From: a virus
Lineage: Duplodnaviria > Caudoviricetes
IMG/VR virus record: IMGVR_UViG_3300013121_000001
Span: 1 to 64,000 of that record
DNA length: 64,000 nt
Strand: one strand, 5' to 3'
The notes beneath the pieces are model-generated. The model was not told the DNA's origin, made no database searches, and was given only the letters and a program-made list of their open reading frames with translations. Both the position numbers and the translations under genes were made by a program. Shown here in pieces: positions 24,621 through 49,967 of the stretch. Position 1 is the stretch's first letter. Each line of letters opens with the position of its first letter.

Positions 24621-27600
24621 TGGGTAAAACTAATTTAATAAATCCGTATCAGGATATCATAGACTTTGCTAATGCTCAATCTGGTGCAAGGTTTAATCCA
24701 TTTGATAATAGAGTACCATTAGCTGGTGCGTCTACTATGAGCACTGCGCCAAGTAGTGGTATAGATATAAGGCAATCAGAGTTTCAGATTCCTAGTAACA
24801 TCACTCCAGAAGACTTGCCTTATTATCAGGCAGCTCAACAAGACAATTGGTCAAGATTAGGTAGGACACTTGGCAACTTACCATTTAATGTTGGATTCGG
24901 TATACTAGAAACATTTGGATATCTAGGTTCTATGCCAGACTTAATATGGGGTGGTGACTTTGATAATGCGCTAACAAGTTGGGCAAGAGAAAAGAGAAAC
25001 GCAGTAGCTGGTCAAGTATACGAACCTGTATACGGAAAGAGTACTGTTGAACACTTAAGTAATCCTGCATGGTGGATTGTAAATGGTGGAGGTTTAGCTG
25101 AAAGTATTTCAGAGTTTGGCATTACTACAATACCAATTGCAGGAGCCTTAGGTAAAGCCGCACAACTTGCAGCAAATGTAGCTAAAGTTACTGCTCGTAC
25201 AGCGACAGGATTAAATCTTGGAGCTAGAGTATTAACTGGTGTAACAACGGGATATATGGAAGGTGCAATGAGTGGTGCACAAATATACCAACAAACTTAT
25301 GAAGATGGTTTGTCGAAAGGCTTAGGCATAGAAGCAGCACAAAAGAATGCAGCAGAAGCTGCAGCTACTACTACAAGAATAAATACAGTATTGATGGGTA
25401 TATCAAATGCTGCAATGTTAGGACCCGCATTCTTCAGTGCAGATAAAGTAGCACGAGCTGAACGTTATGCACAACAGATGGGATTGTCACAAGCTGTAGG
25501 AGAAACGAATGAACAGTTTATTAAACGTTTAGAAGCTGCTTCGATAGAAGATGCGCTTAAGAACAATACCTATAAGATATTTGGTAAGTATGATTCTGGT
25601 ATACGCAGAGGCTCGCTAGACTGGTTAAAAGAATCAACCATGGAAGCTGGAGAAGAAGTAGCTAACGTATTTGCAGAGCAGCGTGGTTTACAAGCAGGTG
25701 GTGTAACAGAAAAAAAAGGCATACTTGAAACACTGTCCGATGTATTAAGCTCGCCTGAAGGACAAATGTCTGCACTACTTGGAGCATTTGGCGGTATAGG
25801 CGAAGCTTCTATAATTAGTAGAATACCTTGGCATAGATACCAAGAAACAAAAGAAACAACTGATGCAGAAGGTAGACCTATTACTGAACCAGTAGGTGCT
25901 AAACAATGGGTATCAGCAAAGACATTAGAAGATAAAGAAGTTCAAGAAAAGTTTGAGCAATTCAAAGGAACTATAATAAGAGATGTAAAACAGTTTGAAG
26001 AAGGACAAAAGAATCTAAGTACATTAAAGACTAGACTTATTAATGCAGAGGAAGATGATAAAGAATGGTTGAAGACTCAAATAGAATTGCAAACACAAAA
26101 GCTATTTGACTTTTCAGCATATCAATCATTACAAACAGGAAACTTAAAAGCTATCCGAGAATTATTTCAAGGTGTGGCGGAATTAGATAATACAGAAGTG
26201 TTGTCTGATAAGATTGACCAACAAATTGCAACTCTTAAGTCAACTCGTGATACATTGCCAGAAGATGGAAAAGCTGCAATTAATATAGAAATTGAAAGAC
26301 TTGAAAGAGAAAGTGCTAAATACTCTGGCATGACAGCCGCCATGGCTGCCGGTCTTGCAGATAGTACTAGCGATAATGCATACAAGACAAGAGCAGAAAA
26401 TCAAATAGAGAAGCTCAATTCTCTTGAAAAGATATACGATGATACAATGGCTAGATATAATTATGGCGATGAGCTAACATATGGGTTAGCTAAATATATA
26501 TTCTCTGCTAAAGCAGAACTATTAAATATTGGCGTAGCTGTAGAAGAACTAACTAAGTTTGAACAGAACTTGGCTGCAAAGATTGATGCACAAATGGCAG
26601 CAGATAATCTGCCTATGGATTTACAAGCTTACGTTAAGAACCAGTCGGCATACATGAGTCTTAGTAATAGATTAAATACTCTTTTAGAGAAGCACACAAA
26701 GATTAGAGACAATATTGATAGTATGACAGAATCAGAACTATTATCTGCCATGCATGAGATGGGTGTACCTACCTCTACATTACCTGTAGATTCTACAAAG
26801 GAACAACTTATAGAAGCTTTAACTGATTATACAAATACTACAGCGGCAGTTATAGGTGCTAAGATGGAAGACGCTTCAGATGAACTATTAAATGCTATTA
26901 CATCTTACGCAAACTCTAAGGCGATAAATAAGCCATTACCATTAAATAGTACTGCAACTCCTACACCAGATTTAGAAGAAGCCAAAGCACAACTGGAAGC
27001 TGCGTTTAAAAAAGAACAAAAAAATCTATATGGATTAGCTACAGTAAGAACAAGGCTTGAGAATTTAAAAGCAATGCAAACACATCTTGATAACAGTATT
27101 AATAAACTCGCATCTGCAAAAGGACGTAAGCAGTTTATAGAATTCGTAAAGAAACAATTAGAAGATAGAGCAAAGACATCTGCGCAACAGAAAACGGAGG
27201 TAGATAGCAAGAACATTACTGAACGTAGGTTTGCCAATGAGTTGAGAATGAAAGGATATGATAAAGATTTCGTTAACGCTTTAATGAAAGCACTAACAGA
27301 AGGTACTGCATTACCACAACAATATAGAAATACAAATGTATTTGTACAAGGTTCTCGAGGTAACTTTACTGGTAAACGTTATCGTATTTATATTGACGAG
27401 AACGGTAAGGCTACTATAAGTGAACTTAAGCCTAAAGGTAAAAAACGTAGTAGATGGGAACTTACTGGTAGTAGTAGTGTTAAGTTCACCGATAAGAAAG
27501 ATAAGCAAGTATATAGAAATGTAAAGGATAAGAAGACAGGTAAATTTAAAAAAGTATTAGATAAGAATACAGAGCTTCGTGGTAAGATAAATGTACATGC

Positions 27601-30600
27601 ATTTATGCGTTCAATGAGAGTTCTGTCTGTACAAGAAAACAATGACTACAATGCAACATCAAAACTTAGAGTTAAACGAACAGTTGCAAAGCAAGCGGCA
27701 TATCAAATGATTAGACAACTACAAGATAGACAAGCAAATGCACAAGCTGTTGTTGCAATGAGAACGGCAGATATAGAAAAGATGCAGAATGTCCAAGCAG
27801 ACTTTGTTACTGTATTTACAAATTTATTTAATACGTTTAACTTAGATCCTACAGCATTATCATCAGTATTATCTAGACTTAATGATGCATTTGATAATTA
27901 TAAAGAAGAAATAAATAGAATCGAAACAGATAATAGCTTAGACGATCAGGCTAAGACATCACAATCAATTATCGGAGCGACTGTGTTTGAAGAAGCAATA
28001 GAAGATCTTAGATATGATGTGATTGAAATGTTCTATAATACTATTTCTGCGAGGCACCAAGCTGCGGATACTACACTTAGTACTGAGGATGCAATGGATA
28101 AAGCAGCAGAAGAGCTTGAAGCGTTTACTAAAGCTAATGCTAGTGCAAACTTGTTGTTTGATACAGAGGCACATGCAAAAAATGCAGTTATATTAATGAA
28201 TCGTTCAAGAACTATTAACGATTTACAGAAAGAATTAGATGCTGCACAAAATGATTTCGAACATCTACAACAACGTATAGAAGCTGTTACATCTTATCTA
28301 CAAGATCTTTCTAACTTACCACTAACATCTTTTAATACAGCGCCTATAGTAGAACTTAGATTAGCTGTCGAAGGAGAATTAAAAGATGATTTTCCATTTG
28401 AGTTTGCTTCGTTTATGGATAATACTATACAGACAGGTAGACAAGAGCTTGCCATATTTATGTTACAGCTTTATGAAGAAGTTGAGAAAATGCCAGACAC
28501 GTCTCCCGAAAAAGATCAAATGAAGACGCTACTTAATTCTTTGTCTACTAAGTATGGTATGACACAATTAGATATACTTGATGCTCGGATTACTATATTA
28601 GCGGATAGAGGTAAGCCAAATCTAGGAGTAGTTGAAAATCTAACCTCAGTTCGTGTGGCTAAAGCTTTAAAGACTTTAGCTGATAAAGGATTTAAGCTGG
28701 ATACACTTGAAGATTTAATTAAAGCCGAAGAAATATTATTAATGCGTGATTTGCTAGAACAAGAACGTGTTAACATGCAAGCTGAAATAGATGCATTACA
28801 AGAAGACTTAAATCAATTACGTGAATTTAGAAACCTTCAAGTTAGAAATCTAGCGTTACTTGCTAAGACGGCAAAGAACGCATCCTTGTTTGATATGACA
28901 GTAGTGGAAGACTTTAAAGGACATCTTGAAAGTAATTATAAAGATTTAAATCTTCCTAATCCAGAAGAAATATTAAAGGCATTGGCATTAGATGATGAAG
29001 ACAGTATTGCATATAATGCTATGTATGCAGCATTACTTGAATATAGAAACGGTAATGTAACACAAGTACAACAAGACATACAAGAATTTAAAACAAGATT
29101 TGCGGATAGGCATATAGACTCTGACACTGTGACAGAACTTTTACAGGATCAGATTAATGCTCTAACTGTAGCAAAGGATGAAATGCTTAGAAATACAATA
29201 AAGAGACAAGCATTATTTGTAACGCTAATGAATAAGTACATCACTGGATTACAGGATGAGTCTATGTTCAAAGCGATATACTACAAGAAGCTAAAAGATC
29301 TTGGATCTCATGCTGAAAGTAATTTTATAAACAATTTTGATCTAGACTTCAATGAAGATATTGAACCAGATTATTATACAGTAGCACGTAAAACAAGTAC
29401 AGAGTTTTCTACTACAGGTATGGAGGATATATTCACACCGAACAATCCTGCGTATGTAGACGAGAAAGGTAATCTTGTTATGGCTAAAGGTATACGTGGT
29501 ATTAACAAAGATGATGGTACTATACTTAATCCAAACGATCCTGTAGATCGAGTTATCATAGAGAAACATCTTCCTATGGAAAGATGGTTTAGATTTACTT
29601 CATCAAATGAGACAAGAAAATTAATCAAGGAAGGTAAAGTTAATCTAAAACTACAATCCATAAAGAAGGCATTAGAGTATGCAGAAACAATAATTAATGA
29701 TGTTAATTCTAGCGAATCGAAGAAGCTTACTTATGGGGTGCTAAAGAAAGAGCTTGAAGCTATGATTAAAAGTATTGAAGATGCAAACCCTGCAAACTCT
29801 GATGAGATATTAGCTAATACTGTTATAGCAATACCTGTAACAAGTAATGGTGATATGACACACGCTGCTTACTTTGATGCAGATATAAACGCTACACAAG
29901 CTGCAATACCTTGGACAGTACTTAGAAAGTCTACAACAGTATTCCCTAGAAATCAAATGGGTGATACTGAATTAGACTTAGAAAAACTAGGTGTTGGATC
30001 TAGGCGAATTGCTGCAGCAGAACGTAATTTAAAGTTTGAAGTAGCTGGAAATACTGTAACTATATTTACAGATAAAGAGAAGACTAAGAAATATACATTT
30101 CCTAATGGAGATACTTCGTATACGATACAGTCTGCTACACAAAAACAACGCTATACTGAGCTACAACAACTACGTAGAAGGATTGCGATAGACATGTTAA
30201 GAGCAGAGTATGAAACCTTTATTAAAGATATAGTAAATAGTGATGATCCACAATATGTAGAGATAAAAGCAACAACACCTGGAACGAACTTAATGGTACA
30301 CGAGATCACACCAAGTGGACCAAAGATGTTGAAAAGAAAAATGAGTGAGATATCCGTTACACAAGATACAGGAGACTTTAAAGGAAAACTATACATAGCA
30401 CAACGTGATGGATTAACCATTGATGGCGTACAATATTCACAATTCTCTCCTGGTCAATTAGTATATAAAGGGGTTAACGATGAAACTTATTTAGCAATGA
30501 CTAAGAATCTAGAGGACCTAGATCCTACATTAAGAGACAGATTTATAGACGTATTCTTATATGCACTATTATTAGCAGGTACTGTTACAACACCACTTGG

Positions 30601-33600
30601 TAGCATTAATGTTAGAACAGCTACTCACAAGGGACAATACGGAGAGAAGATACAAAGAAATGATGATGTACCCTCAGACATGGTGCCAGTGTTTCCGTCT
30701 AAATCTGCGCTGTCTATTCTTGAAACATTTCTAAACTATGGCAGAAAGCGTGATAATGGTGGTAAGTTCAATCCTAATAAAGATCAGATCTTTATTGAGA
30801 GTGGTAATGTGGTAATGATACGTAGGAATGCAGCTGGTGTATATGATAGAACAGAGATTAGTCTGTCAAGTATCATAGTAAATGGAACTATAGATAAGAA
30901 TAACGCAGATGTAAAAAAGATAATTGACTATTTAAGTAAAAAGCACATGAACGTAAACTCACGTATGCTGTTGTTTAGTAACAACAATAATATGTTCTTT
31001 TTACCTAAGGTTAAAAACAATCTTGTTGTAGGTAATAGAATTAGTATCGGTGATAGACACGGTATTGAAATGGAATTCCAGAATCAGAATTATAAGACAT
31101 GGTTATCACGTAATGTTCTAGAAGTTGCTAAGATGCCTGAAGCTAAACCAGGTGAGAAACTAAGCAGAACTTCAGGACAAAAAAACTTAATATACAGCGA
31201 TGAACTAAGTGATACATTTATTGTACCAAAGACAAAAGCTAAAACTACAAAGGCACAACCTACTGTACAGCAACAACAAAATGTTAATTCACAAGTTAAC
31301 ACAAAGAAACAACCGTCATCGAACACAACTAAAAGTTCGAGAGCTTGGTCTTCTCTATCTGCTGATGAGAAGGACGATATTAAAATAAAGTTTATGTCTT
31401 CTGCACGTGCTGTTGGTTTACCTACACAACAGTTAGACATAGAAGTAGAAAAATGGTACAACGAAAATGTTTATAGCGCAGGTGCTCCTAAAAAGTTTCC
31501 AGCATCTATAAAACAAGATGTTGAAAGAATAATAGAGACACAAGAAGCTAAAGATAATCTAAGAGATATATTTGGAGATCAGTTTGTACAAGACCACTTT
31601 GAAATGATAAGTGGATTAATACATGGAGAAGACATAGGCTACTTCACAGATGATGGTAAGATATTACTTAGTACTCAATCGTTTGCTGGAGTAGAATATC
31701 ACGAAGCATTCCACAGAGTATGGCGTATATTTGTACCTGCTGCACAGAGAGAAGAAATAATTACAGAGTTTAAAACACGTGCAAACTGGAAAGCTTTAGT
31801 AGAAGCTAAACAAGATGAAGGTTATCGAACTAAAAGTGAGGCAGAAATAATAGAGGAGATATTGTCTGACGAGTTCATGGATTATATGATGAACAAAAAG
31901 ACAAAGCTAAAAGATAAACAACGTACTTGGTTTCAAAAACTAATTGACTTTCTGCGTAATCTATTTAGTCCAGATAAATCTTATCCAACTAAAGTAGAAA
32001 GATTGTTTGCTGAGATTTCTCAAGGCAAATATAAAAACATGTCTGGAAGTGTAGATCCAATATTCCTTTATAAGGGGGCACCAAAGAAAGCAAAGATGCC
32101 TGTTCCAGACAGTGTGTCTGGTGGATATAGACTTCAGGATATAGTAATTAATGACACTGTATATCAAGAGTTTAGAAACGGATTTGCATTATCAATACTA
32201 CGTAGCCTAAGAGACTCAGGTAGGTTGTATGCAACAATATCAGGAATGAGTACAGACATAGAAGATGTGTTTAAAAACAAACTTGTAGAAATTGTAGACA
32301 AACTTCGAAACGTAAAGGCTACTGAAGCAATACCTATGCGTGAGTACGCAGAATCTATATTAGATATTTATGACAAGATAGATGAGATAGAATCTATAGA
32401 AGATAAGTCAGAGGCAGAAAAACGACAATTAGTAATACTGAGAAGACTGTTAAATAACAATGAAATTATTAATGGATATAAAGCATTTATGAAAGACTTA
32501 GGTATAGATAATAACGATGTTACTACATCTAATTTAACTATTGAAGAAATGCTAGATACTGATAATGGGCCAATAAAAGACGACGCAACCTATAGAGTAA
32601 CGTTTGAACTAGATCCTCGTACTAGTATGAAATCTTTAATGAGATTACTTATTGCCACTCTACCTGAAGTACAACTTACTATAGGTACATCACGTCCTGG
32701 ATTACCAGCTAGAAAGGTATACACACCATTAGGTGGAACTATACTATCAAACATAGCACAGCCAGCTAATTGGAATAATACAGTATCCTTATTACTAAAA
32801 GAGATGGCAGGTGTACCACCAATCTTTGTACGTACAAGATTAGATACACTTGGAAGTAAGTTCCCTATGCTAAGAGAATTAGTAACTTACTTGCTACATG
32901 AGGACAATACTCCTGTACTTAATTTATTTACAAGTGCATTTCATAATCACAATTATGAAATGAGCATACAAATGATGAGAATAGATAAAGGTAAAGATGT
33001 AAGTGTATATTCAGCAAATGCAAATATAAATAGTGGTATTGGTACAATACAGCTTAGAATGCGTTCGTATATTGAGCAACAATTAACTGCAGATAATAAA
33101 TCTGCAATTTATGATTACTTTAACAAGATACCTACGATAGGCTCAGGTAGCTATAATCAAGACCAGCTAACTAAGATATTGGGATTCTTAGGTATTGAGA
33201 TACCACCAATATTTCTTGAAGTAGGTACAGATGGTAAACCTATGTTTATGCGTTCAGAGTTCTTAGTATCAAGTTATGATACCACAACTGGTGGTACTAC
33301 ACCTAAGGATTTATCTTTCTTAGCTAGAACTCTTGTTGGCGAGATTATAAAACATACAAGTTCATATAACTCTCGTATTAATAACTTGGATGGAATCTTT
33401 AATGGGGACGTAGTTAAGGGAACACTAAATCAATTAGCAGAGGTAGTTGCTAAGATGACGCCATCTAAGAGCGTATCTATTATGAATGGACAGAATAAGA
33501 TGTACTATCCTATAAATCAACACAGCTATCAAACAGTAATGCTAGACGATATATCGTTTGTATTGCAAGCATCTACTGCAGAGATAAATGAAATGTACAA

Positions 33601-36600
33601 TATGTTGTTTAAACAAGAGGAAGGTAGTATTATATTTGACATGTTTGATAAATCTATAGCTGCAACACGAACTCGTGAATTAGAAATAAAGATTGAAAAT
33701 AGAATTAGAGATGACTATAGAAGATATAATATAGTTCCAACACCTGAAAGAACAAACCGACTTAAGATCTTATACTATACTTATCCATATATATTTATGA
33801 GTAATAATAATTATAATTCTGTATGGAAACAACAGATAATTAGATATGAGTTAGGTACCGAACTTCCTATACAAATAGTAATTAAAGATAGTTTAAAACT
33901 TGAAACAGATAAGAATGGACAACATCTATCTGATTTATACGCATCTGATTTATTCACTGTCATATTGTCTAGTACAGTATATGGAGAGTATAAGTCTGTA
34001 CAACACGCTGAACGTGCAATATATTACTTTTATAAGACTAAAGACTTTATTCCTTATAATATTGATATGTTTAATAATAAGGGTAACATTGATGAAATGA
34101 ATCCAATACTTTCCAATAAAATTATAAATACTGTATTAGGATATTTAACAGATGAACTATTAGCATATCATTCTAGAACACATGAGCATACAAACTACAG
34201 TGGGTTTGGAGACAAGAAAAAATACAATGGATTGTTTAATGATATTATACAAGGTAATAGCAGTATAAGTAGATCAATTAATGCTTTTATAGAACAACTG
34301 TCTAGTCCTAATATTACACATCAAGGTGCGCAGAATCTAATTAGAGAATACTTGGCTAATAATACAGTGCTTAGAGAGAATATAATAGCATACGTTGTTA
34401 ATAAGTCTAATGAGTTTGTAACAAAATTACAAGAAGAGCATGGACTACTAACTAGTAGCACTCCAGTATTTAATGAGTCCGCACTTAGTATACAGGATTC
34501 TAATAATAGTACAAGTACGATTGCTAGAATAGCTTGGATTAATACCTGGATAACTCACATAGAGGAAACTAAACTATTCTCTGGACCAGTACAATTATAT
34601 GGTAGTGCTGGTACATTCTGGAAACGTATGGTTACACAGTCATCAACAGGTAATTTGCTTAATAATTCTCCTGCCATACTACATAACATTAATACGTATA
34701 ATCAAGAAACGGCAAATACATTTGGTGTTGTATATGGCAAGGAAGAAAAAGGATTACTATCTGAAATAGTTTTTGTAGAAGAAAAAGCAGATGCAGTAGC
34801 TTATAGAGAACTTGTACACGAACAAATGGTGTCTTCATATACTCAATTATTTATTAATGCAGGATATGATCAACTTGATGCACAAAGCCTTGCTCTACAA
34901 CAAGCAGATAAATATGCTGCAGGTTATAGTAGTGTAAATGAGAACGATGGTATAGGTTGGATAAATCCATTTGCATATAGAGCATACATGATAATGGCAG
35001 AGAAATGGACAGAAGAAATGCAAGAAGTATTTGACTTTGAAATGTATGTGTATGCAGATGCGTTAAGAAATATATATAAACATGAAAGTGCAATTCGTCG
35101 TGCATTAGAACAAGGATTGCCTATTCAAAATGCAAGAAACGTAGCTGCTGCACAAGATAGGTATACACCTATAGATGAACTATTTAATAGATTCATGAAA
35201 GATAAAGGAAAGAAAAATGTAAACTCTGTTGAGTGGTTTCATAAGCACGCAGAAGCTATGACTATGTTAAAGCCACAATACGTAGGACAAGTATATAGTC
35301 ACAAGTCAAATAAGAATCCGTCACTAGCTGATATTATGTTAGATGAAAATATAGAACATTTTATCGGTGGTAGAAAGATGGCATATGATTACCTGTCTCC
35401 ATATGTACTTAGAGGTGAGAAACCATCAGAGCGTACCAAACAATTTGACATGCTTAGATTTATGGTATTTCATGGAATAGATCATATGGTAATGGGTAGT
35501 GGCGCCAAGTTCGGTACAGTAGATCAAGTAAAATGGTATAACAAAGAAGGACAGTTTAATGTAGACGATTTAGTAGATAGTAAAGCTGGATTAAACTTAA
35601 ATTATGTAGCACATTTAGACTGGAGACATTTAAAGAATCAGGTTGATATACATACACATCAGGAAGCTAAAGTAGTTGACTCATCACAGTCAAGAAAAAA
35701 CAAGGTGGCTACTGTTATGAATAATGGAGTACCTATTGACTTTGATAGATTAATAGGAGAGACAGATGAAGAATATAAAGATAGGTGGAATGAACATAGA
35801 CTAAACGCAGAACGTATAGCTAAAAGAAGTAGGAAACCTATTGAAACTTCAAGTACGTTATATAATCTTAAGGAAGAATATAAGTCTATACAGGCTGAAA
35901 TTACTTATAGGTTAATAACAGAGCTTGAGTCTAGTATTGGATTTAGTAGAGCTAGCGGATTATATACAGAAGATTTAGATAAGATAATAAGTGTTCTAAA
36001 ACAGAATGCTAAGAATAGAAATTATTCATCTAACCTAATTGAAATGATCGAAGACATAAAGAATACAAAGGCTTATGACTTCTTACCTGGAAGAAAAAGA
36101 ATAGAGAGCTTACTTACTTCACTTGTATCACGCGAGACGATATCTCAAAAGAGATTAGGCATAGATCTTCCACAAGCACCGTCTACTGGTCTTGAATCTA
36201 TTAGTAGTCCTATGCGTATTGCTGGGGATGAGGGTAAGTTAAGATTCTATCGTCCTAATGTTGCAGAAAACACTACAAGTTCTGAAGTAATTATGCCATT
36301 ACCAGAAGCTTATATGGTACAAATAAACAGATACTATCTAAATAAGTTTATAAAAGCTGGTGGTAAGAAAGAAGCCTTTAATATATTTAAAGCTGTCGAA
36401 ATGTTAAATAATGATATTGCAGATCCAAACAGTGGAATTAATATTGAGATGTTAGGTCTTCGTATTCCTAACCAGCAGCTATCATCTAATGATTGGATGC
36501 GTGCTGTTAAGTTTTATGTGCCAATTAAAAATAGCTATGTATATGTACCACATTACATAGTAGTTAAAGTAGGATCTGACTTTGACATTGACAAATTAAA

Positions 36601-39600
36601 AATTTATTTACCACATCTAGATGATAATCTAAATCCTATTGAAATGGACAATGATTTACCAACACCAAGAGATGTAGTTAGATACAAAGATCAAACTATA
36701 TTTGAGGGATTAGAAGTTAAGATTGATGACAACACATCTGTATATAATGCATTAGATAATAATGATGACTTAATGAATGATCTGACTGTTAACATACTTG
36801 AAATAATAGACATGCTTATATCGAATGATATAAATGTTGTACTTGAAGATGGAAGTAATATAGAAAATAGTGAACTCTCTGTTCGACTATTTGACTATAA
36901 AAAATTAACTATAAAAGATTTAAGTACTATAATAGATGCACTCGACAAAGTATTTATAGGACACGGATTTATTGACTTAAGTAATGAGACAGTTAGTATT
37001 TCTTTATCACAACAAGAATTTAATGATCTTGCATTACTATTAGATGAGCTTAGTTCATTAAGAGACGAAGCAGTTGAGAAAACAGTAATACCTGCTGATA
37101 TGGCTGTATTACAACAGAAACTTAAAAGTGAAGTAGGTGATCCACTTAAGTGGTCATCAACAGAGGCTTTACATAATCGAGTGTTAGAAATTGAGAGAGA
37201 TATTTTATTAAACCATAGAAACTTTGCTAGTCTTGTTAAGCCTGTATCAATGGAATTAGCTACTCAAGTTGCAGAGGAACACGGTATTAATGAAAAAGTC
37301 AACGTAAAAAATTTATCAAAAGCAGTAGATCCTTTAACTAATATGGAAAATGCAATATACTTTGTACACGCAAAAATGGGTGTTGGTAGAGTTGCATTAA
37401 CTATAAATATTAAGGCAGTATCATTAGATTTAGATGTTTCTTTAAACAAAGAAGTGTTTAGTGCATCCGAAGATAGAATAGTTAAAGTAAGAAACTTATT
37501 CTCATCTAATCCAGATGTGACATTTTCAGATCTACTAGATGGTACTGGTACTATAACACTTGATAACTCATCTGAGACACTTACACTACAAGTAGATGCT
37601 GTTAAGAATCCAATATCAGTACATTTAGGAATGAATCTACAAACACTTAACTTGATAGGATATCTAATAAATATAGGAGTTTCCTTCCCAGATGTAATTG
37701 GATTGTTTCAGACACCAGTTATAAGTGACTACTTACAAAGTATTAAATTAAGAACAAGTAAGTACATTGGAGCTTCCAATGGATTTGTGTCTAAAGCTAA
37801 TATTAAGAAAGAGTTTTATGATGAGTGGTTAATAAACAAGGCAAAATCATTAGGGCCTACGCAGGCAAAAGAATTATATAAGTTCTTAGCTGAAATTACA
37901 GAAGACGACGATCAGCAAATACTATCGTATAAAGACGTACATAAGTTACGTGAAGCAATGCTTAAACCCGGATTAGGTGCATTGGATAATAGAAAAGGAA
38001 ATGAGTTAGATAAAGCTAAACAAGAGTTAGTGATGTTATTATACATGTTTGACTTGATACCAACAGGAGACGAGTTTACTGATTTCTTATTAGCTGCTGC
38101 AGCAGATACACGTGTACATAAAAGTCTTGAGGCTGCAGAACGTATGCAATCATCTATTAACTCTTATCTTACACAGTCTTTTACTACACCTAAAATTGTA
38201 TCAGCTAACTCATTTAAGTCTATAATGGATAAGAGTATTGTGGGCTCATTCTTCGAATCACAGAGAGAGTATACTGCTCTTATCAAACCGTTGTATAGAA
38301 TGGATAAGATTAATATACGGGTTGGTAATACAGAAGTTCCAATATTTGCAGAGCTTAGAGAATTATTTAGACAAATGACACCAATAGGATCTACATCACA
38401 AGAGATACAGAGATATGAAGATTCGTTCATAGATGATTTAATAGTATATCTAACGTATAGAGTATTAGAGGATGCAATAAATCCTACACATCCAATGGGT
38501 ATACAACCTAGTAATTTCTCTAAGAATATTCTAGAAGTTGCAAAAACATTTTTATCTTTAAAAGATGCGTCCATAGATGCTAAAACACTTTTAGATATTA
38601 TTAAAAGGTCTGGTGTTAATCTAGGTATTACTAATTCGAAAGATCCAAAGAACAGAATACTTCTTGAGAAGAAAGTAACGCCACAAAATAAGGAAGTAAG
38701 AGTTGCACGTATTGTTGATAGAACACTACCTAATGTAGAAATAGAAGACATGATTTCTAGTATTTCACAGCGCTTAAATAATGCTAGTAACATAGCAGAT
38801 ATGCGTGCTGCTTTATCATTATTCTTTGTGTCAACTATGCAATCTGGTATTAGTAATTCACCCTACTCATTTAGTAAAGTAATGCCATATACGGGTGCAG
38901 TTAAGGATATATTAATTAAGTCTATGGAACTAGTAGAAAACTTATCCGATGAGAACAAACTTAATCTTGCTAAAGAATTCTTTGATTGGTTCTTACGTGC
39001 TAATCCATATGTAAATGGTAATGAATCTAGACAGCGTAGAAATATTAAATTTTTTAGATTAATATCACCATATCACTGGTCATTAAAGAATGGAGTATTT
39101 AGTTTGATTGACAACAATTCAAGAACTAATGTTACTCATACTATTATTGGTAGTTCTTTCCATAAAGAATTTAATACTCGAGGTAATGCAAAATTAATTG
39201 ATTCACTTTTTAATGCTTATCTAAGTACTAAAGGCATAGTTATAGGTAGCGAATCAACTACTATTGTACCAGTTATTAATGGTATTATTACGTCTGGTGT
39301 GATAGGTCCAAGCAGTGCTGCGCTAATAGTAGCGCGTAATCACAATATACCTATTTCAGGTTATGCACATCCAGAGGGCAAGGTAGCTGAAAAGAGAATG
39401 CATAGAAAGAAACTTGAGAATGAAGGATTAGAGTTTTCAGAAGAAAAGTTTGTTGAAAAGAATATAGAAAAATCTGATGGTGTCGTATTTATAACTACTG
39501 ATAAAAACTCTAGCGCACACAAAATATTATCTGGTATAGCTACAACAAGTAAGAAACCATATCTACTTATAAATATGAATACAGAGTTAGGACAAAACAC

Positions 39601-39736
39601 TAATAACCTATATGACTTTTTCAGTACAAATAATATTAAATCTCCTTACTTTGTTGGAGATGAGACATCTGATGCTGAGAAATATACCGTTCAATTACTA
39701 AACAACTTTCTAAACAATCTAACAGAGTGTGAATAA
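24620..39736 (+). CDS. Giant virion-packaged DNA-dependent RNA polymerase polyprotein (crAss/phi14:2 gp66-like)
   Basis: GLRIPNQQLSS and catalytic GSDFDIDK (DFDID at 36578-36592). Zincin-like HEAFH (31700-31714) with downstream EEILSDEF. C-terminal SLOG-like domain. Confidence 0.9.
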   Translation: MGKTNLINPYQDIIDFANAQSGARFNPFDNRVPLAGASTMSTAPSSGIDIRQSEFQIPSNITPEDLPYYQAAQQDNWSRLGRTLGNLPFNVGFGILETFGYLGSMPDLIWGGDFDNALTSWAREKRNAVAGQVYEPVYGKSTVEHLSNPAWWIVNGGGLAESISEFGITTIPIAGALGKAAQLAANVAKVTARTATGLNLGARVLTGVTTGYMEGAMSGAQIYQQTYEDGLSKGLGIEAAQKNAAEAAATTTRINTVLMGISNAAMLGPAFFSADKVARAERYAQQMGLSQAVGETNEQFIKRLEAASIEDALKNNTYKIFGKYDSGIRRGSLDWLKESTMEAGEEVANVFAEQRGLQAGGVTEKKGILETLSDVLSSPEGQMSALLGAFGGIGEASIISRIPWHRYQETKETTDAEGRPITEPVGAKQWVSAKTLEDKEVQEKFEQFKGTIIRDVKQFEEGQKNLSTLKTRLINAEEDDKEWLKTQIELQTQKLFDFSAYQSLQTGNLKAIRELFQGVAELDNTEVLSDKIDQQIATLKSTRDTLPEDGKAAINIEIERLERESAKYSGMTAAMAAGLADSTSDNAYKTRAENQIEKLNSLEKIYDDTMARYNYGDELTYGLAKYIFSAKAELLNIGVAVEELTKFEQNLAAKIDAQMAADNLPMDLQAYVKNQSAYMSLSNRLNTLLEKHTKIRDNIDSMTESELLSAMHEMGVPTSTLPVDSTKEQLIEALTDYTNTTAAVIGAKMEDASDELLNAITSYANSKAINKPLPLNSTATPTPDLEEAKAQLEAAFKKEQKNLYGLATVRTRLENLKAMQTHLDNSINKLASAKGRKQFIEFVKKQLEDRAKTSAQQKTEVDSKNITERRFANELRMKGYDKDFVNALMKALTEGTALPQQYRNTNVFVQGSRGNFTGKRYRIYIDENGKATISELKPKGKKRSRWELTGSSSVKFTDKKDKQVYRNVKDKKTGKFKKVLDKNTELRGKINVHAFMRSMRVLSVQENNDYNATSKLRVKRTVAKQAAYQMIRQLQDRQANAQAVVAMRTADIEKMQNVQADFVTVFTNLFNTFNLDPTALSSVLSRLNDAFDNYKEEINRIETDNSLDDQAKTSQSIIGATVFEEAIEDLRYDVIEMFYNTISARHQAADTTLSTEDAMDKAAEELEAFTKANASANLLFDTEAHAKNAVILMNRSRTINDLQKELDAAQNDFEHLQQRIEAVTSYLQDLSNLPLTSFNTAPIVELRLAVEGELKDDFPFEFASFMDNTIQTGRQELAIFMLQLYEEVEKMPDTSPEKDQMKTLLNSLSTKYGMTQLDILDARITILADRGKPNLGVVENLTSVRVAKALKTLADKGFKLDTLEDLIKAEEILLMRDLLEQERVNMQAEIDALQEDLNQLREFRNLQVRNLALLAKTAKNASLFDMTVVEDFKGHLESNYKDLNLPNPEEILKALALDDEDSIAYNAMYAALLEYRNGNVTQVQQDIQEFKTRFADRHIDSDTVTELLQDQINALTVAKDEMLRNTIKRQALFVTLMNKYITGLQDESMFKAIYYKKLKDLGSHAESNFINNFDLDFNEDIEPDYYTVARKTSTEFSTTGMEDIFTPNNPAYVDEKGNLVMAKGIRGINKDDGTILNPNDPVDRVIIEKHLPMERWFRFTSSNETRKLIKEGKVNLKLQSIKKALEYAETIINDVNSSESKKLTYGVLKKELEAMIKSIEDANPANSDEILANTVIAIPVTSNGDMTHAAYFDADINATQAAIPWTVLRKSTTVFPRNQMGDTELDLEKLGVGSRRIAAAERNLKFEVAGNTVTIFTDKEKTKKYTFPNGDTSYTIQSATQKQRYTELQQLRRRIAIDMLRAEYETFIKDIVNSDDPQYVEIKATTPGTNLMVHEITPSGPKMLKRKMSEISVTQDTGDFKGKLYIAQRDGLTIDGVQYSQFSPGQLVYKGVNDETYLAMTKNLEDLDPTLRDRFIDVFLYALLLAGTVTTPLGSINVRTATHKGQYGEKIQRNDDVPSDMVPVFPSKSALSILETFLNYGRKRDNGGKFNPNKDQIFIESGNVVMIRRNAAGVYDRTEISLSSIIVNGTIDKNNADVKKIIDYLSKKHMNVNSRMLLFSNNNNMFFLPKVKNNLVVGNRISIGDRHGIEMEFQNQNYKTWLSRNVLEVAKMPEAKPGEKLSRTSGQKNLIYSDELSDTFIVPKTKAKTTKAQPTVQQQQNVNSQVNTKKQPSSNTTKSSRAWSSLSADEKDDIKIKFMSSARAVGLPTQQLDIEVEKWYNENVYSAGAPKKFPASIKQDVERIIETQEAKDNLRDIFGDQFVQDHFEMISGLIHGEDIGYFTDDGKILLSTQSFAGVEYHEAFHRVWRIFVPAAQREEIITEFKTRANWKALVEAKQDEGYRTKSEAEIIEEILSDEFMDYMMNKKTKLKDKQRTWFQKLIDFLRNLFSPDKSYPTKVERLFAEISQGKYKNMSGSVDPIFLYKGAPKKAKMPVPDSVSGGYRLQDIVINDTVYQEFRNGFALSILRSLRDSGRLYATISGMSTDIEDVFKNKLVEIVDKLRNVKATEAIPMREYAESILDIYDKIDEIESIEDKSEAEKRQLVILRRLLNNNEIINGYKAFMKDLGIDNNDVTTSNLTIEEMLDTDNGPIKDDATYRVTFELDPRTSMKSLMRLLIATLPEVQLTIGTSRPGLPARKVYTPLGGTILSNIAQPANWNNTVSLLLKEMAGVPPIFVRTRLDTLGSKFPMLRELVTYLLHEDNTPVLNLFTSAFHNHNYEMSIQMMRIDKGKDVSVYSANANINSGIGTIQLRMRSYIEQQLTADNKSAIYDYFNKIPTIGSGSYNQDQLTKILGFLGIEIPPIFLEVGTDGKPMFMRSEFLVSSYDTTTGGTTPKDLSFLARTLVGEIIKHTSSYNSRINNLDGIFNGDVVKGTLNQLAEVVAKMTPSKSVSIMNGQNKMYYPINQHSYQTVMLDDISFVLQASTAEINEMYNMLFKQEEGSIIFDMFDKSIAATRTRELEIKIENRIRDDYRRYNIVPTPERTNRLKILYYTYPYIFMSNNNYNSVWKQQIIRYELGTELPIQIVIKDSLKLETDKNGQHLSDLYASDLFTVILSSTVYGEYKSVQHAERAIYYFYKTKDFIPYNIDMFNNKGNIDEMNPILSNKIINTVLGYLTDELLAYHSRTHEHTNYSGFGDKKKYNGLFNDIIQGNSSISRSINAFIEQLSSPNITHQGAQNLIREYLANNTVLRENIIAYVVNKSNEFVTKLQEEHGLLTSSTPVFNESALSIQDSNNSTSTIARIAWINTWITHIEETKLFSGPVQLYGSAGTFWKRMVTQSSTGNLLNNSPAILHNINTYNQETANTFGVVYGKEEKGLLSEIVFVEEKADAVAYRELVHEQMVSSYTQLFINAGYDQLDAQSLALQQADKYAAGYSSVNENDGIGWINPFAYRAYMIMAEKWTEEMQEVFDFEMYVYADALRNIYKHESAIRRALEQGLPIQNARNVAAAQDRYTPIDELFNRFMKDKGKKNVNSVEWFHKHAEAMTMLKPQYVGQVYSHKSNKNPSLADIMLDENIEHFIGGRKMAYDYLSPYVLRGEKPSERTKQFDMLRFMVFHGIDHMVMGSGAKFGTVDQVKWYNKEGQFNVDDLVDSKAGLNLNYVAHLDWRHLKNQVDIHTHQEAKVVDSSQSRKNKVATVMNNGVPIDFDRLIGETDEEYKDRWNEHRLNAERIAKRSRKPIETSSTLYNLKEEYKSIQAEITYRLITELESSIGFSRASGLYTEDLDKIISVLKQNAKNRNYSSNLIEMIEDIKNTKAYDFLPGRKRIESLLTSLVSRETISQKRLGIDLPQAPSTGLESISSPMRIAGDEGKLRFYRPNVAENTTSSEVIMPLPEAYMVQINRYYLNKFIKAGGKKEAFNIFKAVEMLNNDIADPNSGINIEMLGLRIPNQQLSSNDWMRAVKFYVPIKNSYVYVPHYIVVKVGSDFDIDKLKIYLPHLDDNLNPIEMDNDLPTPRDVVRYKDQTIFEGLEVKIDDNTSVYNALDNNDDLMNDLTVNILEIIDMLISNDINVVLEDGSNIENSELSVRLFDYKKLTIKDLSTIIDALDKVFIGHGFIDLSNETVSISLSQQEFNDLALLLDELSSLRDEAVEKTVIPADMAVLQQKLKSEVGDPLKWSSTEALHNRVLEIERDILLNHRNFASLVKPVSMELATQVAEEHGINEKVNVKNLSKAVDPLTNMENAIYFVHAKMGVGRVALTINIKAVSLDLDVSLNKEVFSASEDRIVKVRNLFSSNPDVTFSDLLDGTGTITLDNSSETLTLQVDAVKNPISVHLGMNLQTLNLIGYLINIGVSFPDVIGLFQTPVISDYLQSIKLRTSKYIGASNGFVSKANIKKEFYDEWLINKAKSLGPTQAKELYKFLAEITEDDDQQILSYKDVHKLREAMLKPGLGALDNRKGNELDKAKQELVMLLYMFDLIPTGDEFTDFLLAAAADTRVHKSLEAAERMQSSINSYLTQSFTTPKIVSANSFKSIMDKSIVGSFFESQREYTALIKPLYRMDKINIRVGNTEVPIFAELRELFRQMTPIGSTSQEIQRYEDSFIDDLIVYLTYRVLEDAINPTHPMGIQPSNFSKNILEVAKTFLSLKDASIDAKTLLDIIKRSGVNLGITNSKDPKNRILLEKKVTPQNKEVRVARIVDRTLPNVEIEDMISSISQRLNNASNIADMRAALSLFFVSTMQSGISNSPYSFSKVMPYTGAVKDILIKSMELVENLSDENKLNLAKEFFDWFLRANPYVNGNESRQRRNIKFFRLISPYHWSLKNGVFSLIDNNSRTNVTHTIIGSSFHKEFNTRGNAKLIDSLFNAYLSTKGIVIGSESTTIVPVINGIITSGVIGPSSAALIVARNHNIPISGYAHPEGKVAEKRMHRKKLENEGLEFSEEKFVEKNIEKSDGVVFITTDKNSSAHKILSGIATTSKKPYLLINMNTELGQNTNNLYDFFSTNNIKSPYFVGDETSDAEKYTVQLLNNFLNNLTECE

Positions 39737-46781: not shown

Positions 46782-47331
46782 AGTTTAAAATTTTAAACTG
46801 ATTATCTATTTCAATAATTGAAACGGAATTAAGTTCTTCTATTACTTGCTGGAATGAAGGCTCACCAATAGCATTGTTGGCTGCCCCTAATCCAAAAACT
46901 TTATTAATATCTTTTTGAGTATATTTGTTGTTATCATCTATTGTTACATACCATTTGCCTTCTCTAAAGATAAAGACTTGAGGTAATGAATATACTATAG
47001 AATTATCATTATAAGTAACATTACCTGATTTAATTAAGTTAATCATAGACTGATCTAGAATTATTTCTCTTTCAGTATATGGATTAATTACTGGGACACC
47101 TTCAAATTGAAGTTGTGATTGTGCAATTATTTTATTACCTATTGCATAAGAATCAATGTCATAATTAAACCTATACGTAAGTTCTGAATTATGCGGTTCA
47201 TTATACATCCATTCTCCTTTAGAGAATCCTGTAGGATTCTTATCTATCCAACATAAAACTCCATAAATTTCTTCTGGGTAGTAGATTTTACTACCTTGTA
47301 GTAAAATTGTGCTTTTAGTTATTTTTTTCAT
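46774..47331 (-). CDS. Hypothetical protein
   Basis: Overlapping operon ORF. Confidence 0.6.
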   Translation of the reverse strand: MKKITKSTILLQGSKIYYPEEIYGVLCWIDKNPTGFSKGEWMYNEPHNSELTYRFNYDIDSYAIGNKIIAQSQLQFEGVPVINPYTEREIILDQSMINLIKSGNVTYNDNSIVYSLPQVFIFREGKWYVTIDDNNKYTQKDINKVFGLGAANNAIGEPSFQQVIEELNSVSIIEIDNQFKILNYE

Positions 47332-47939
47332 ATTAATTTTTTTATTACAAAGTAATGTTTACTCCACTCACCTTCTATTTTCCATGTGCCTGATTCCACA
47401 CGAAAATCTAAGGCTTCCAACGCTTTACTAAAGCCTTTTGTATATGCATTAACATATTCATATAATTCAATATCCGTGTGTTGTATACCAATACTGTCAA
47501 ACGCAGTATCGTATGCCATGTGACTTATGTTGAATTTTCCAATAGTTCTTTGATCTTCTAAAGATAGTTGAGAAAAGTCTATCTCACTATTTTCTGCAAC
47601 TATTGGCAAAGCTTTTTGTATTACTGTAGAATGTGGAGTTGCATATGGAAATCCATTTATTACAAAGAAAGAGTTTACATGCTTAGTATTATCTTTGCTT
47701 TGCTGTATCTTATTGTGAATCCATTTTAGATCCCCAACTATTATTGTACGAGGCCCCTCTAGAAAACGCATACCATTAGGTATGTCTTCTGTTTCTAATT
47801 CACATGTTATTACCCAGTGATCTGGTAATACCACTTGTTTTATTTTGTGCAACATGTAATTTTTTCCTTCAGTTCTTTTCATGTTGAGCTTGGATTTAAT
47901 TTTATCCAACGGGTAATCTTTTCTTTCTAGTTTTTTCAT
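47328..47939 (-). CDS. Hypothetical protein
   Basis: ATGA-coupled operon ORF. Confidence 0.6.
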   Translation of the reverse strand: MKKLERKDYPLDKIKSKLNMKRTEGKNYMLHKIKQVVLPDHWVITCELETEDIPNGMRFLEGPRTIIVGDLKWIHNKIQQSKDNTKHVNSFFVINGFPYATPHSTVIQKALPIVAENSEIDFSQLSLEDQRTIGKFNISHMAYDTAFDSIGIQHTDIELYEYVNAYTKGFSKALEALDFRVESGTWKIEGEWSKHYFVIKKLI

Positions 47940-47957
47940 ATTAAGTTTTGATTTAGG

Positions 47958-48206
47958 TTATTCAATTCCTTCAAATAATTTATCCATTAAAGTAGTAGGA
48001 AAAATAATTGATGAGTACTTATTGTTTTGCTCATTTATTTTTCCTCGTAACTCTATAGTTGTTTTGTGAACTTTTCCTAAAGATCTTTCAACTATTTTAA
48101 ATGATTCAATCATTCCACATAAAACATTATATTCTCTGTTTTTTTCATCAAGTAAATGCAGTTCATCCGAAGTGAACTTAGAGTAATATTTGTTTAGATT
48201 TTCCAT
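47958..48206 (-). CDS. Hypothetical protein
   Basis: ORF with an AT-rich leader, directly downstream of the tRNA-like element. Confidence 0.55.
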   Translation of the reverse strand: MENLNKYYSKFTSDELHLLDEKNREYNVLCGMIESFKIVERSLGKVHKTTIELRGKINEQNNKYSSIIFPTTLMDKLFEGIE

Positions 48207-48225
48207 AATTTATGTATTTGTTTAG

Positions 48226-48383
48226 TAGCCGGGATAGGATTTGAACCTATATTCTCCATCAATTCAGCACCGTCTTGGTCGAGAACTTAATAGATGCTTG
48301 TGCTGCGTAATCTATTAATGCGTCTACCAATGTCTACGGCCCCAGTTTTTATCCCAGCGCCATGACAATTTCGCCACCCGACT
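48226..48383 (-). ncRNA. Enlarged tRNA-like RNA (Leu-type scaffold, no canonical anticodon loop)
   Basis: 7-bp acceptor stem AGTCGGG/CCCGGCT plus discriminator A. Perfect T arm ATAGG-TTCAAAT-CCTAT. Split D arm TGGCGAAATTG...GTAGACGC. 9-bp anticodon-position stem and long variable arm. No encoded CCA. Confidence 0.75.
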
Positions 48384-48393
48384 ATCCTTATTA

Positions 48394-48618
48394 TTACAAA
48401 TAATTTTCTTGTAAGAATTTTATTAATTCTTTTACAGATTCATTGTCTAATTGAATGTATGATTCATTTCCAATAGTTATCTGTAAAGAATGTCCTCGTT
48501 TCATATTTCCACGAAAACTATAAAACCGTACTGTTTCCTCTCTACAAGTAGGTACAGGGTTGTCATCTTCTCTGGGTACTTCTACTTGCCCCGTAAGTTC
48601 AACCAATAGTTTTGACAT
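48394..48618 (-). CDS. Hypothetical protein
   Basis: 74-aa ORF in the operon. Confidence 0.6.
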   Translation of the reverse strand: MSKLLVELTGQVEVPREDDNPVPTCREETVRFYSFRGNMKRGHSLQITIGNESYIQLDNESVKELIKFLQENYL

Positions 48619-48627
48619 AATTTGTTT

Positions 48628-48903
48628 TTAGTTTTCAGCTTTACTATCATATATATATTGCTTCAGATTATTTAATTCAATCTGTAATACCTCAATTTCA
48701 AATTCTACTGCTTCTATTTCAGTAGCAGAGTACTCTTCAAGTACTCTTATTTCGTCTCCAATTTTGTGTCCTGGCTTTACTTGAAAGTATGATTTGCCTT
48801 TAGCATCTTGATATACTTTAGTATACCAAAGTCCATCCTTTGGAAAAGACTCGTTGTCTTTTACTACGTGAACTTTATTATCGGCTGTTATTATTCTGTA
48901 CAT
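48628..48903 (-). CDS. Hypothetical protein with C-terminal short coiled coil
   Basis: Overlaps the end of the aaRS-like gene. Confidence 0.6.
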   Translation of the reverse strand: MYRIITADNKVHVVKDNESFPKDGLWYTKVYQDAKGKSYFQVKPGHKIGDEIRVLEEYSATEIEAVEFEIEVLQIELNNLKQYIYDSKAEN

Positions 48904-49897
48904 ATTTTTCTAAAAAGTTTAAAGCTTTTATTAATCTATTTATACCTATGCCACCACCTAAGGTAATCATAGGATTCTCTTCGAGTACTTTGAAGTACTG
49001 TTTCAGTTCATACTCTACTCTTTTCTCGCCAAACTTATCAATTAAGTTCTGGGCATATTGTCCGCCTTGTATGTTATAAAATCTTTCTCTCATTACTTTA
49101 CTATCATTTGAACGTACTGCCGAACCAATGACTTCCATCATCACTATCTGTCCTGTTGGCATTTCAACAGGTAGTAATACATCTATCTTATAGAATGTAT
49201 CCGTTACAGTATCACCGGTATAATTAATATGCTGCATGTTCCAATACGGCTCGTCTATGCCACGGAAGTTAGTGATTAATACTGGAGTATAATCGCCATC
49301 TTGCGCTAGCCTAGCCTCGTCTATGGAGGTTACAGGGCCATTAGGATTAATGTCGCGTGCAGACATCATTCTAACCTTAGTACCAAAGCCAAAGGCTTTA
49401 ATAATATCTAATAAAGTAGATACTAATTTAGCATATGCTTCGTCTATTCTTGTTCCAGCAATAGCTTCAAAGTCAAGCAATAAAAACTTAGCAAGATGTC
49501 TACCATCAATTATCTTACGATAGTCTTCATGTCTAAAACTTGGAGCTATACAATACATGCCATGATACTTACCAAGTTTAAACTCTAAGTCTGTACGTAT
49601 CAACCACTCCATATACATTTGAGTAGTCTGATCTAACGGAAATTCAATCTTATTTGTAAGATCTTCTATGTTAGTACATACAAAATGCCTAAACATATTT
49701 TCATCTATGGTCGAGTATTCAGTTGGTACTCCATAGGTTACCATGTTTGTACTATCTTCACATGCAGATAGTATAGTAGGAATTAAAGGAGGTGCTACCT
49801 GTACATAATTATATTCTGTGTTGTTAGCAATATATTTTTGCCACAATCTTATCACTTTATTAAAGTCTTTGATACTTATATTTTCGTATACTGCCAT
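48878..49897 (-). CDS. Class IIb aaRS paralogue (AsnRS/AspRS catalytic domain only; archaeal AsnA-like)
   Basis: LDQTTQMYME, motif 2 PSFRHE...RHLAKF...DFE, EVIGSAVR and motif 3 GGGIGINRL. About 339 aa from the ATG at 49897, leaving no room for an OB-fold anticodon domain. Confidence 0.8.
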   Translation of the reverse strand: MAVYENISIKDFNKVIRLWQKYIANNTEYNYVQVAPPLIPTILSACEDSTNMVTYGVPTEYSTIDENMFRHFVCTNIEDLTNKIEFPLDQTTQMYMEWLIRTDLEFKLGKYHGMYCIAPSFRHEDYRKIIDGRHLAKFLLLDFEAIAGTRIDEAYAKLVSTLLDIIKAFGFGTKVRMMSARDINPNGPVTSIDEARLAQDGDYTPVLITNFRGIDEPYWNMQHINYTGDTVTDTFYKIDVLLPVEMPTGQIVMMEVIGSAVRSNDSKVMRERFYNIQGGQYAQNLIDKFGEKRVEYELKQYFKVLEENPMITLGGGIGINRLIKALNFLEKYVQNNNSR

Positions 49898-49940
49898 TAT
49901 ATTATTAAGTTTATATTTATAGAATAATCTTTGTAAGATT

Positions 49941-49967
49941 AATATCCCCACTCTTTGTGGGGATATT
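49941..49967. terminator. Perfect 11-bp hairpin (terminator-like or processing site) upstream of the aaRS-like gene
   Basis: AATATCCCCAC-TCTTT-GTGGGGATATT, 4 nt after a - strand stop codon. Weak U-tract. Confidence 0.5.

Follow-up and report, generated by a model that had tools for sequence, protein, structure and literature searches.

A 158-nt tRNA-shaped RNA gene without an anticodon lies on the minus strand at positions 48226 to 48383 of the window, which is the whole 64,000-nt stretch of phage DNA analyzed here. According to its sequence and architecture, this element is most likely a diverged, single-copy member of a phage family in which a tRNA-Leu frame surrounds hypervariable middles, and we consider it probable that it is expressed as a non-decoding RNA and matured by tRNA-processing enzymes. 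The window copy is unusual in being single and outside any tRNA array, in carrying a hairpin within its D loop, and in standing 495 nt downstream of a gene for an aaRS-like catalytic core.

Genome setting

The window covers the first 64 kb of a record of 102,158 bp with direct terminal repeats, and near-identical DNA is found in activated-sludge runs from at least 11 studies, no RNA data set being among the runs listed. The sole ordinary tRNA gene of the 102-kb record, Arg-TCT, is located at 77343 to 77415, 29 kb from the element, of which the genome holds one copy. Around the element, the minus-strand block encodes a DNA polymerase, a helicase, a primase, a Sak4-like protein, and an exonuclease. 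The element fills the space between its neighboring genes, and no ORF overlaps it; it begins 10 nt past the stop codon of the ORF at 48394 to 48618, and 19 nt separate its end from the next ATG (ORF 47958 to 48206).

Upstream on the same strand lies the gene for a class IIb aaRS-like catalytic core of 357 amino acids (48878 to 49951, minus strand, recognized by PF00152). Two small minus-strand ORFs intervene between this gene and the element, one of 91 amino acids (48628 to 48903) and the other of 74 amino acids (48394 to 48618), and neither gave a significant family match. No terminator was predicted between the enzyme gene and the element, and the promoter and terminator scans around the element revealed nothing above shuffled controls.

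Anatomy and fold of the element

Positions of the element are numbered along the minus strand (i 1 to 158), so that the window position equals 48384 - i; the whole element is supported by the Rfam tRNA model, our own family model R2 (see below), and the minimum free energy (MFE) fold. By direct reading, the 5' strand of the acceptor stem is AGTCGGG (48377 to 48383; A1, G2, U3, C4, G5 to G7), and its 3' strand CCCGGCT is followed by the discriminator A73 and then by CUA, not CCA (48226 to 48233). The stem thus comprises 7 bp, including U3-G70. U8-G9, the 5' strand of the D stem (GCG), and the opening D-loop bases AAATTG occupy 48366 to 48376. Reading and fold then place a 38-nt insert in the D loop (i 19 to 56, 48328 to 48365), a bulged hairpin with the pairings TGTC/GACA and ATGGC/GCCGT that ends in a duplicated ATTG, and it is this duplicated ATTG-G that supplies G18G19. 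The remainder of the D loop, GTAGA, and the D-stem 3' strand CGC follow at 48320 to 48327. A central arm replaces the anticodon arm (48287 to 48318), its 9-bp stem being formed by TTAATAGAT and ATCTATTAA around the 14-nt loop UACGCAGCACAAGC, and the variable arm (48251 to 48286) pairs GTTCTC with GAGAAT to enclose 24 nt. The T arm, ATAGG-TTCAAAT-CCTAT (48234 to 48250), is perfect by reading, Rfam alignment, and fold.

The unconstrained ViennaRNA MFE fold gave exactly this cloverleaf with its three arms expanded. The fold energy was -49.1 kcal/mol, compared with -38.8 +/- 3.6 kcal/mol for dinucleotide shuffles (z -2.86), and 2 of 200 shuffles folded as well as the element. None of the 15 frame pairs is broken, and the three added hairpins are likewise complete. 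A first-pass annotation, made from the letters alone, had described a 158-nt tRNA shape with three expanded arms and pairing kept in every arm; each feature that it listed was confirmed base for base on the minus strand, and the pairing was reproduced by the unconstrained fold.

The central arm (AAUAGAUUACGCAG) also shows 14 nt of perfect complementarity to the mRNA of a gene for a 5038-amino-acid protein (31952 to 31965, plus strand, in ORF 24620 to 39736). As an antisense target in the phage's own genome, this match (E 0.008, uncorrected for three queries) was rejected as too weak, and it may be due to chance.

The element has no anticodon and cannot decode

The Rfam tRNA model (RF00005) aligns with 48226 to 48383 of the minus strand from end to end, at 28.5 bits (E 0.002), half a bit short of the cut-off of 29 bits, and at gathering thresholds Rfam gave no match to the element. 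ARAGORN reported no tRNA and no tmRNA over the window, and when introns were allowed, its default stringency yielded no gene and lowered thresholds yielded noise only. The canonical parts are nevertheless present, including the 7-bp acceptor stem, a T loop of the UUCRANY type, and a D stem with G18G19. What is absent from the central arm is a 5-bp stem with a 7-nt anticodon loop bearing U33, an anticodon, and purine 37, and a YU-NNN-R loop is obtained neither by shifting the register nor by excising an insert. Because no such loop exists and none is restored by removing inserts, the element cannot decode: it is an anticodon-less RNA. The idea of a non-decoding tRNA mimic was thus borne out in its non-decoding part, while the suggestion that the RNA acts as a decoy for anticodon nucleases is unlikely, since no anticodon stem-loop is left for them to recognize.

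Several other classes of RNA were considered and rejected. Read as an intron-bearing tRNA, the element would regain an ordinary D arm once its D-loop insert was taken out, yet the central arm cannot be cut anywhere so as to leave a 7-nt loop with U33. A tmRNA was found by neither ARAGORN nor Rfam, and the pair in the element is U3-G70, whereas that of tmRNA is G3-U70. For the bacterial Y RNA-like YrlA, there was no Rfam match up to E 10 in 47500 to 49100, and YrlA ends in a Ro-binding stem whereas the element ends in an acceptor stem. None of the other Rfam families match the element.

The element shares with class II tRNA-Leu the 7-bp acceptor stem, U8, the D-arm sequence, G18G19, T54 to C56, A73, and a long variable arm; it differs in having no anticodon stem-loop, in its 38-nt D-loop insert, and in its length of 158 nt. 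A73, G18G19, and T54 to C56 are marks relevant to LeuRS, and E. coli LeuRS reads the placement of G18G19. Charging by LeuRS is uncertain because the insert sits at exactly this site and may disturb the core. A73 and the elbow would thus allow leucylation, but the D-loop insert makes it doubtful.

A phage family with a tRNA-Leu frame and hypervariable middles

A pattern taken from the 3' end of the element was run over IMG/VR and gave at least 156 matches in at least 120 stretches, with the pairing 5' strand present in at least 144. The family has the form AGTCAGG-UGGCGGAAU(U)GGUAGACGC, then 30 to 130 unrelated bases, then ACAGGUUCGAAUCCUGU-CCUGACU-A. Among the matches listed, the lengths range from 65 to 181 nt, and often two to six copies lie within a few kb, usually on the same strand inside tRNA arrays. 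The 5' half and the D arm are nearly invariant although they lie outside the search pattern, while the middles differ. The frame is marked by A1-U72, G2-C71, C4-G69, and A73 without an encoded CCA, A73 being followed by CAA or CGA; the D arm is UGGCGRAAU(U)GGUAGACGC, also given as UGGCGRAAUUGGUAGACGC, and the T loop is UUCRAAU. Judged from these sequences, the family is real and large. Its members keep the acceptor, D, and T arms and replace the middle recurrently across phages, in agreement with the earlier view that the element is not simply a decayed tRNA-Leu. Likewise, the D-loop insert with its duplication, singled out in the first reading, has counterparts in loci L144, L160, and L110, where inserts also come with a short duplication of D-loop bases.

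Members of the form AGTCAGG...CCTGACTA were seen in L099, L105, L110, L128, L131, and L153 and in about 110 further loci (within L092 to L211), L099 carrying six family copies in 5 kb. Some of the middles form subfamilies with compensatory changes, such as GTTGAA/TTCAAC in L100 and L132 versus GAGCAA/TTGCTC in L135, with the loop GCTGGGTAA. The two halves of the family frame together are absent from 50,697 GenBank phage records, and full-text literature searches found no paper on the family.

Phage tRNA-like stable RNAs have been known for fifty years, as T4 species 1 and 2 and T5 RNA1 and RNA2, and we know of no role established for any of them. By sequence comparison, T5 RNA1 and RNA2 together with T4 species 1 and 2 (rnaC and rnaD) are the closest published relatives of the element. 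The T5 RNAs (NC_005859, 30501 to 30644 and 32959 to 33083) are annotated as "tRNA-like stable RNA with unknown functions." Like the element, they have an acceptor-like stem, a class II D arm (CCGGAAUUGGUAGACGG in RNA1), and a perfect T arm; two long hairpins replace their anticodon and variable arms, they measure 125 to 144 nt, and they accumulate as stable RNAs. Unlike the element, they lie in a tRNA array, have other acceptor sequences, and carry no D-loop insert. The T4 RNAs (NC_000866, 70908 to 71171) are small stable RNAs encoded beside tRNA genes; rnaC resembles the element in its tRNA-type T arm and paired ends, but neither rnaC nor rnaD has a recognizable class II D arm. Our own model of the frame family (R2) scored T5 RNA1 and RNA2 at 23 to 26 bits (26 for RNA1), compared with 49 for the element, gave a partial 22-bit match to rnaC, and did not match rnaD. 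With R2 scores of only 22 to 26 bits where they match, the T5 and T4 RNAs are of the same kind as the element but not of the same sequence family. With respect to an already described family, therefore, the kind does match the T5 stable RNAs, but the sequence family does not.

The neighboring enzyme and its linked tRNAs

The window enzyme matches Pfam PF00152 at 35.4 bits (cut-off 25) over residues 91 to 344 and has no anticodon-binding domain. It retains the conserved residues of motif 2 (R/E/RH) and motif 3 (GGGIGxxR) and shows weak NCBIfam matches to AsnA and AsnRS. This enzyme family is found in phages at no fewer than 550 IMG/VR loci, as well as in P-SSM7, P-SSM2, P-SSM5, and huge phages. 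Among the 80 best loci (L012 to L091), 42 have a tRNA within 250 nt 3' of the enzyme gene, at a median gap of 6 nt, and the same enzyme-tRNA module is present in P-SSM7 (L008:2929-3819) and P-SSM2 (L009:2896-3795). These enzyme-linked tRNAs are characterized by U1-A72, G73, an encoded CCA, a class II D arm, a long variable arm, a length of 77 to 111 nt, and a conserved anticodon loop YUGUUUN (GUU, U37). Their covariation is strong: in 15 of 20 pairs both sides change, and pairing is kept in 99.3% of cells. Full-text searches of the literature found no paper on the enzyme-tRNA pair.

In the enzyme tree, tRNA adjacency is confined to one clade, and the window enzyme is placed with P0002 (54% identity) and P0003 (44%), its closest relatives, on a separate long branch. 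The enzymes of this branch are about 80 amino acids longer than the cyanophage ones, with a motif-2 loop that is 2 residues longer and insertions at alignment columns 82 to 110 and 282 to 291. In class IIb synthetases, the motif-2 loop reads the acceptor end.

Compared with the linked tRNA-Asn(GUU) genes (a "tRNA-Asn" at 117,xxx in P-SSM7, that of P-SSM2, and those of the 42 IMG/VR loci), the element likewise follows a gene of this enzyme family on its own strand and shares the class II D arm. It has none of their identity marks (U1-A72, G73, encoded CCA, YUGUUUN loop), showing instead A1-U72, A73, and CUA and no such loop. Its distance from the enzyme gene is 495 nt with two ORFs between, the median in the 42 loci being 6 nt. 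Another long element with linked-type ends (UGUAGGG...CCCUACA-G) was noticed at L004:9558-9712 (minus strand): it measures 155 nt, has an anticodon-type stem-loop with GUC where GUU stands and a variable arm of about 80 nt, and lies in an array of 19 tRNAs with no aaRS-like gene within the 10 kb examined.

Assignment of the element

Two models of our own, R1 of the enzyme-linked tRNAs and R2 of the frame family, were used to place the element. R1 gave it 31.8 bits (E 7.6e-5), compared with 70 to 97 for the linked tRNAs, and R2 gave it 49.3 bits (E 3.6e-9), compared with 72 or more for the core AGTCAGG members. Ordinary T4 and T5 tRNAs reached 9.5 to 31 bits with R2, but the enzyme-linked tRNAs reached 37 to 49, from which R2 does not separate the element; the models alone thus provide no clean separation between the two groups. 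Counted by hand, the element agrees with the family consensus at about 45 of 52 frame positions, whereas with the enzyme-linked tRNAs it agrees at 38 of 52 at most. Six of the seven bases in the 5' strand of its acceptor stem match the family consensus AGTCAGG, and its D arm is the class II D arm of the family, TGGCGRAAUUGG. The replacement of the middle by unrelated hairpins is common to the element and the family, some members of which also have D-loop inserts. The element differs from the core family in G5-C68, U3-G70, and the T stem AUAGG/CCUAU, and in being single and outside arrays, whereas the family is usually multicopy within tRNA arrays. The identity marks, the consensus positions, and the R2 score together make the frame family the most likely assignment of the element, which would be a diverged member.

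When the three hairpins of the element were compared with 2.27 Mb of fetched loci by blastn-short, only chance-level 12- to 15-mers were obtained. In the same 2.27 Mb, the stem GTTCTC/GAGAAT before a T arm occurs only in the enzyme-linked tRNAs of L017, L062, and L078, which makes shared descent or exchange of the variable arm plausible.

Relatives and sequence variation

A blastn search with 47900 to 48700 against GenBank phages gave no match, nor did the window enzyme as a single query in IMG/VR or the enzyme-clade alignment A3 in JGI metagenomes; in genome contigs, A3 found one truncated locus without downstream DNA. The 3' pattern CCCGGCTA retrieved only unrelated tRNAs and 3' halves of tRNA-Met from IMG/VR and metagenomes, and the pattern of the 5' part and insert had one chance match inside coding sequence.

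In run X12, which belongs to a different study (P6), the sequence is identical over 48236 to 48383. A relative was found in run X15 as a contig of 103.6 kb that is about 96% identical and differs at 4 of the 158 element positions. A13G in the D loop is a shift toward the family consensus, and U3C changes U-G to C-G, while G5A and U48C each create an A-C mismatch. The divergence of the element is 2.5%, compared with 3.6 to 6.4% in the flanks, a difference that is not significant, and the comparison neither shows nor excludes selection on the fold. Compared with the window, the X15 contig is longer by 217 bases directly 3' of the element (at about 48222) and by 277 bases between the ORFs 47958 to 48206 and 47328 to 47939 (at about 47960).

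Proposed function and alternative explanations

We propose that the element shares a transcript with the small genes of the leftward block and is excised by host tRNA enzymes, RNase P cutting at A1 and a second cut falling after A73. CCA would then have to be added, because it is not encoded, and an RNA of about 160 nt would persist, to which the tRNA frame gives processing and stability. The working part may be the three hairpins, in the D-loop insert, the central arm, and the variable arm, and excision would also separate the upstream message from the downstream one. Expression has a precedent in T5 RNA1 and RNA2 and T4 rnaC and rnaD, which are annotated stable RNAs of the same build, and processing by RNase P and RNase Z, one of the roles first suggested for the element, is plausible. 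In favor of this proposal, which seems to us rather probable, we count the exact anatomy that folds unaided, the full-length matches to tRNA models, and the gap filled without an overlapping ORF; against it stand the overlap of the R2 scores with those of linked tRNAs, the single copy, the hairpins without matches, and the two mismatches in X15.

The metagenomic matches point to a widespread phage design in which a constant tRNA frame carries exchangeable folded RNA, and the window copy shows that the D loop, besides the anticodon and variable positions, can carry inserts. If the frame serves only processing and stability, it would be a natural counterpart of the laboratory "tRNA scaffold," and if the RNA is charged, a virus would be putting aminoacylation to a new use outside translation. 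The window copy is useful because it is single and belongs to a compact genome, of 102 kb, found repeatedly in activated sludge; the adjoining gene, moreover, encodes an enzyme for which the acceptor end of the RNA could in principle be a target.

The tRNA shape might also be no more than a cut mark for RNase P and the 3' enzyme in a polycistronic message, with no role for the excised RNA. This reading would fit the tight spacing of the element in a series of genes with one orientation, as well as the scans in which no nearby promoter or terminator signal exceeded chance, and tRNA-like punctuation is established for mitochondrial transcripts; but as a mark, an ordinary tRNA or an acceptor/T minihelix alone would suffice, and three well-paired hairpins of about 85 nt in all are superfluous for cleavage, which makes this explanation very unlikely. 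Alternatively, the element could be a relic, a tRNA-like gene from the frame family or from an enzyme partner that has lost its role and survives only by being young. It is a single copy with no orthologue found in the searches run, it scores under the Rfam cut-off, two of the four X15 differences weaken predicted pairs, and its substitution density is not clearly below that of the flanks. Yet every frame pair and added hairpin is intact, and inserts with pairing would not arise from decay; ORFs closely flank the element on both sides, and the identical sequence recurs in the X12 run of another study. Taken together, a relic appears unlikely.

A further explanation ties the element to the upstream enzyme, as the dedicated substrate or aminoacyl carrier of the class IIb aaRS-like core. 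It would have descended from a class-II-shaped tRNA-Asn(GUU), lost decoding, and be recognized through its acceptor end and elbow. The two genes share a strand with no predicted terminator between them, catalytic motifs 2 and 3 of the enzyme are intact, and an odd GUU tRNA accompanies the enzyme gene in the 42 related loci described above. No enzyme-linked tRNA is present in the window genome, where the element is the only R1 match, and the stem of the element's variable arm recurs only in linked tRNAs; moreover, in L012 and L063, too, an expanded A73 element lies within 1.6 kb of the enzyme gene. However, the acceptor end of the element is not the invariant U1-A72/G73/CCA of the linked tRNAs, its R1 score is far from theirs, and the adjacency belongs to an enzyme clade other than that of the window enzyme. 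The sisters of L012 and L063 have no nearby tRNA-like gene, even by R1 with filters off, and no aaRS-like gene was found in 1.06 Mb around 120 family loci. At the genome level, too, the enzyme gene and the family RNA co-occur only loosely: the enzyme gene is present in one of four large family-bearing records, and of five enzyme-bearing records, four contain R2 matches (E 0.001 or better, best scores 46.6 to 76.4 bits), which lie tens of kb away from the enzyme gene wherever the positions were compared. Coupling of the element to the enzyme is possible but unsupported, and we give this explanation a small chance.

A stricter version, which we regard as quite unlikely, would have the two form a closed pair derived from the enzyme and tRNA-Asn(GUU) module, in which the enzyme loads an Asn- or Asp-like amino acid onto a non-decoding, tRNA-shaped carrier. 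Such a pair could keep an activated amino acid for use off the ribosome, or it could shield the enzyme's partner from host defenses that target tRNAs. The module proposed as its source occurs in cyanophages and many uncultured phages. In P-SSM2 (L009, NC_006883.2), the tRNA-Asn of the module is annotated at 164094 to 164179, inside the CDS PSSM2_205 and displaced by about 2 kb; ARAGORN puts it at 162082 to 162169, directly after the "tRNA ligase" gene, a position that fits the tag order (PSSM2_199).
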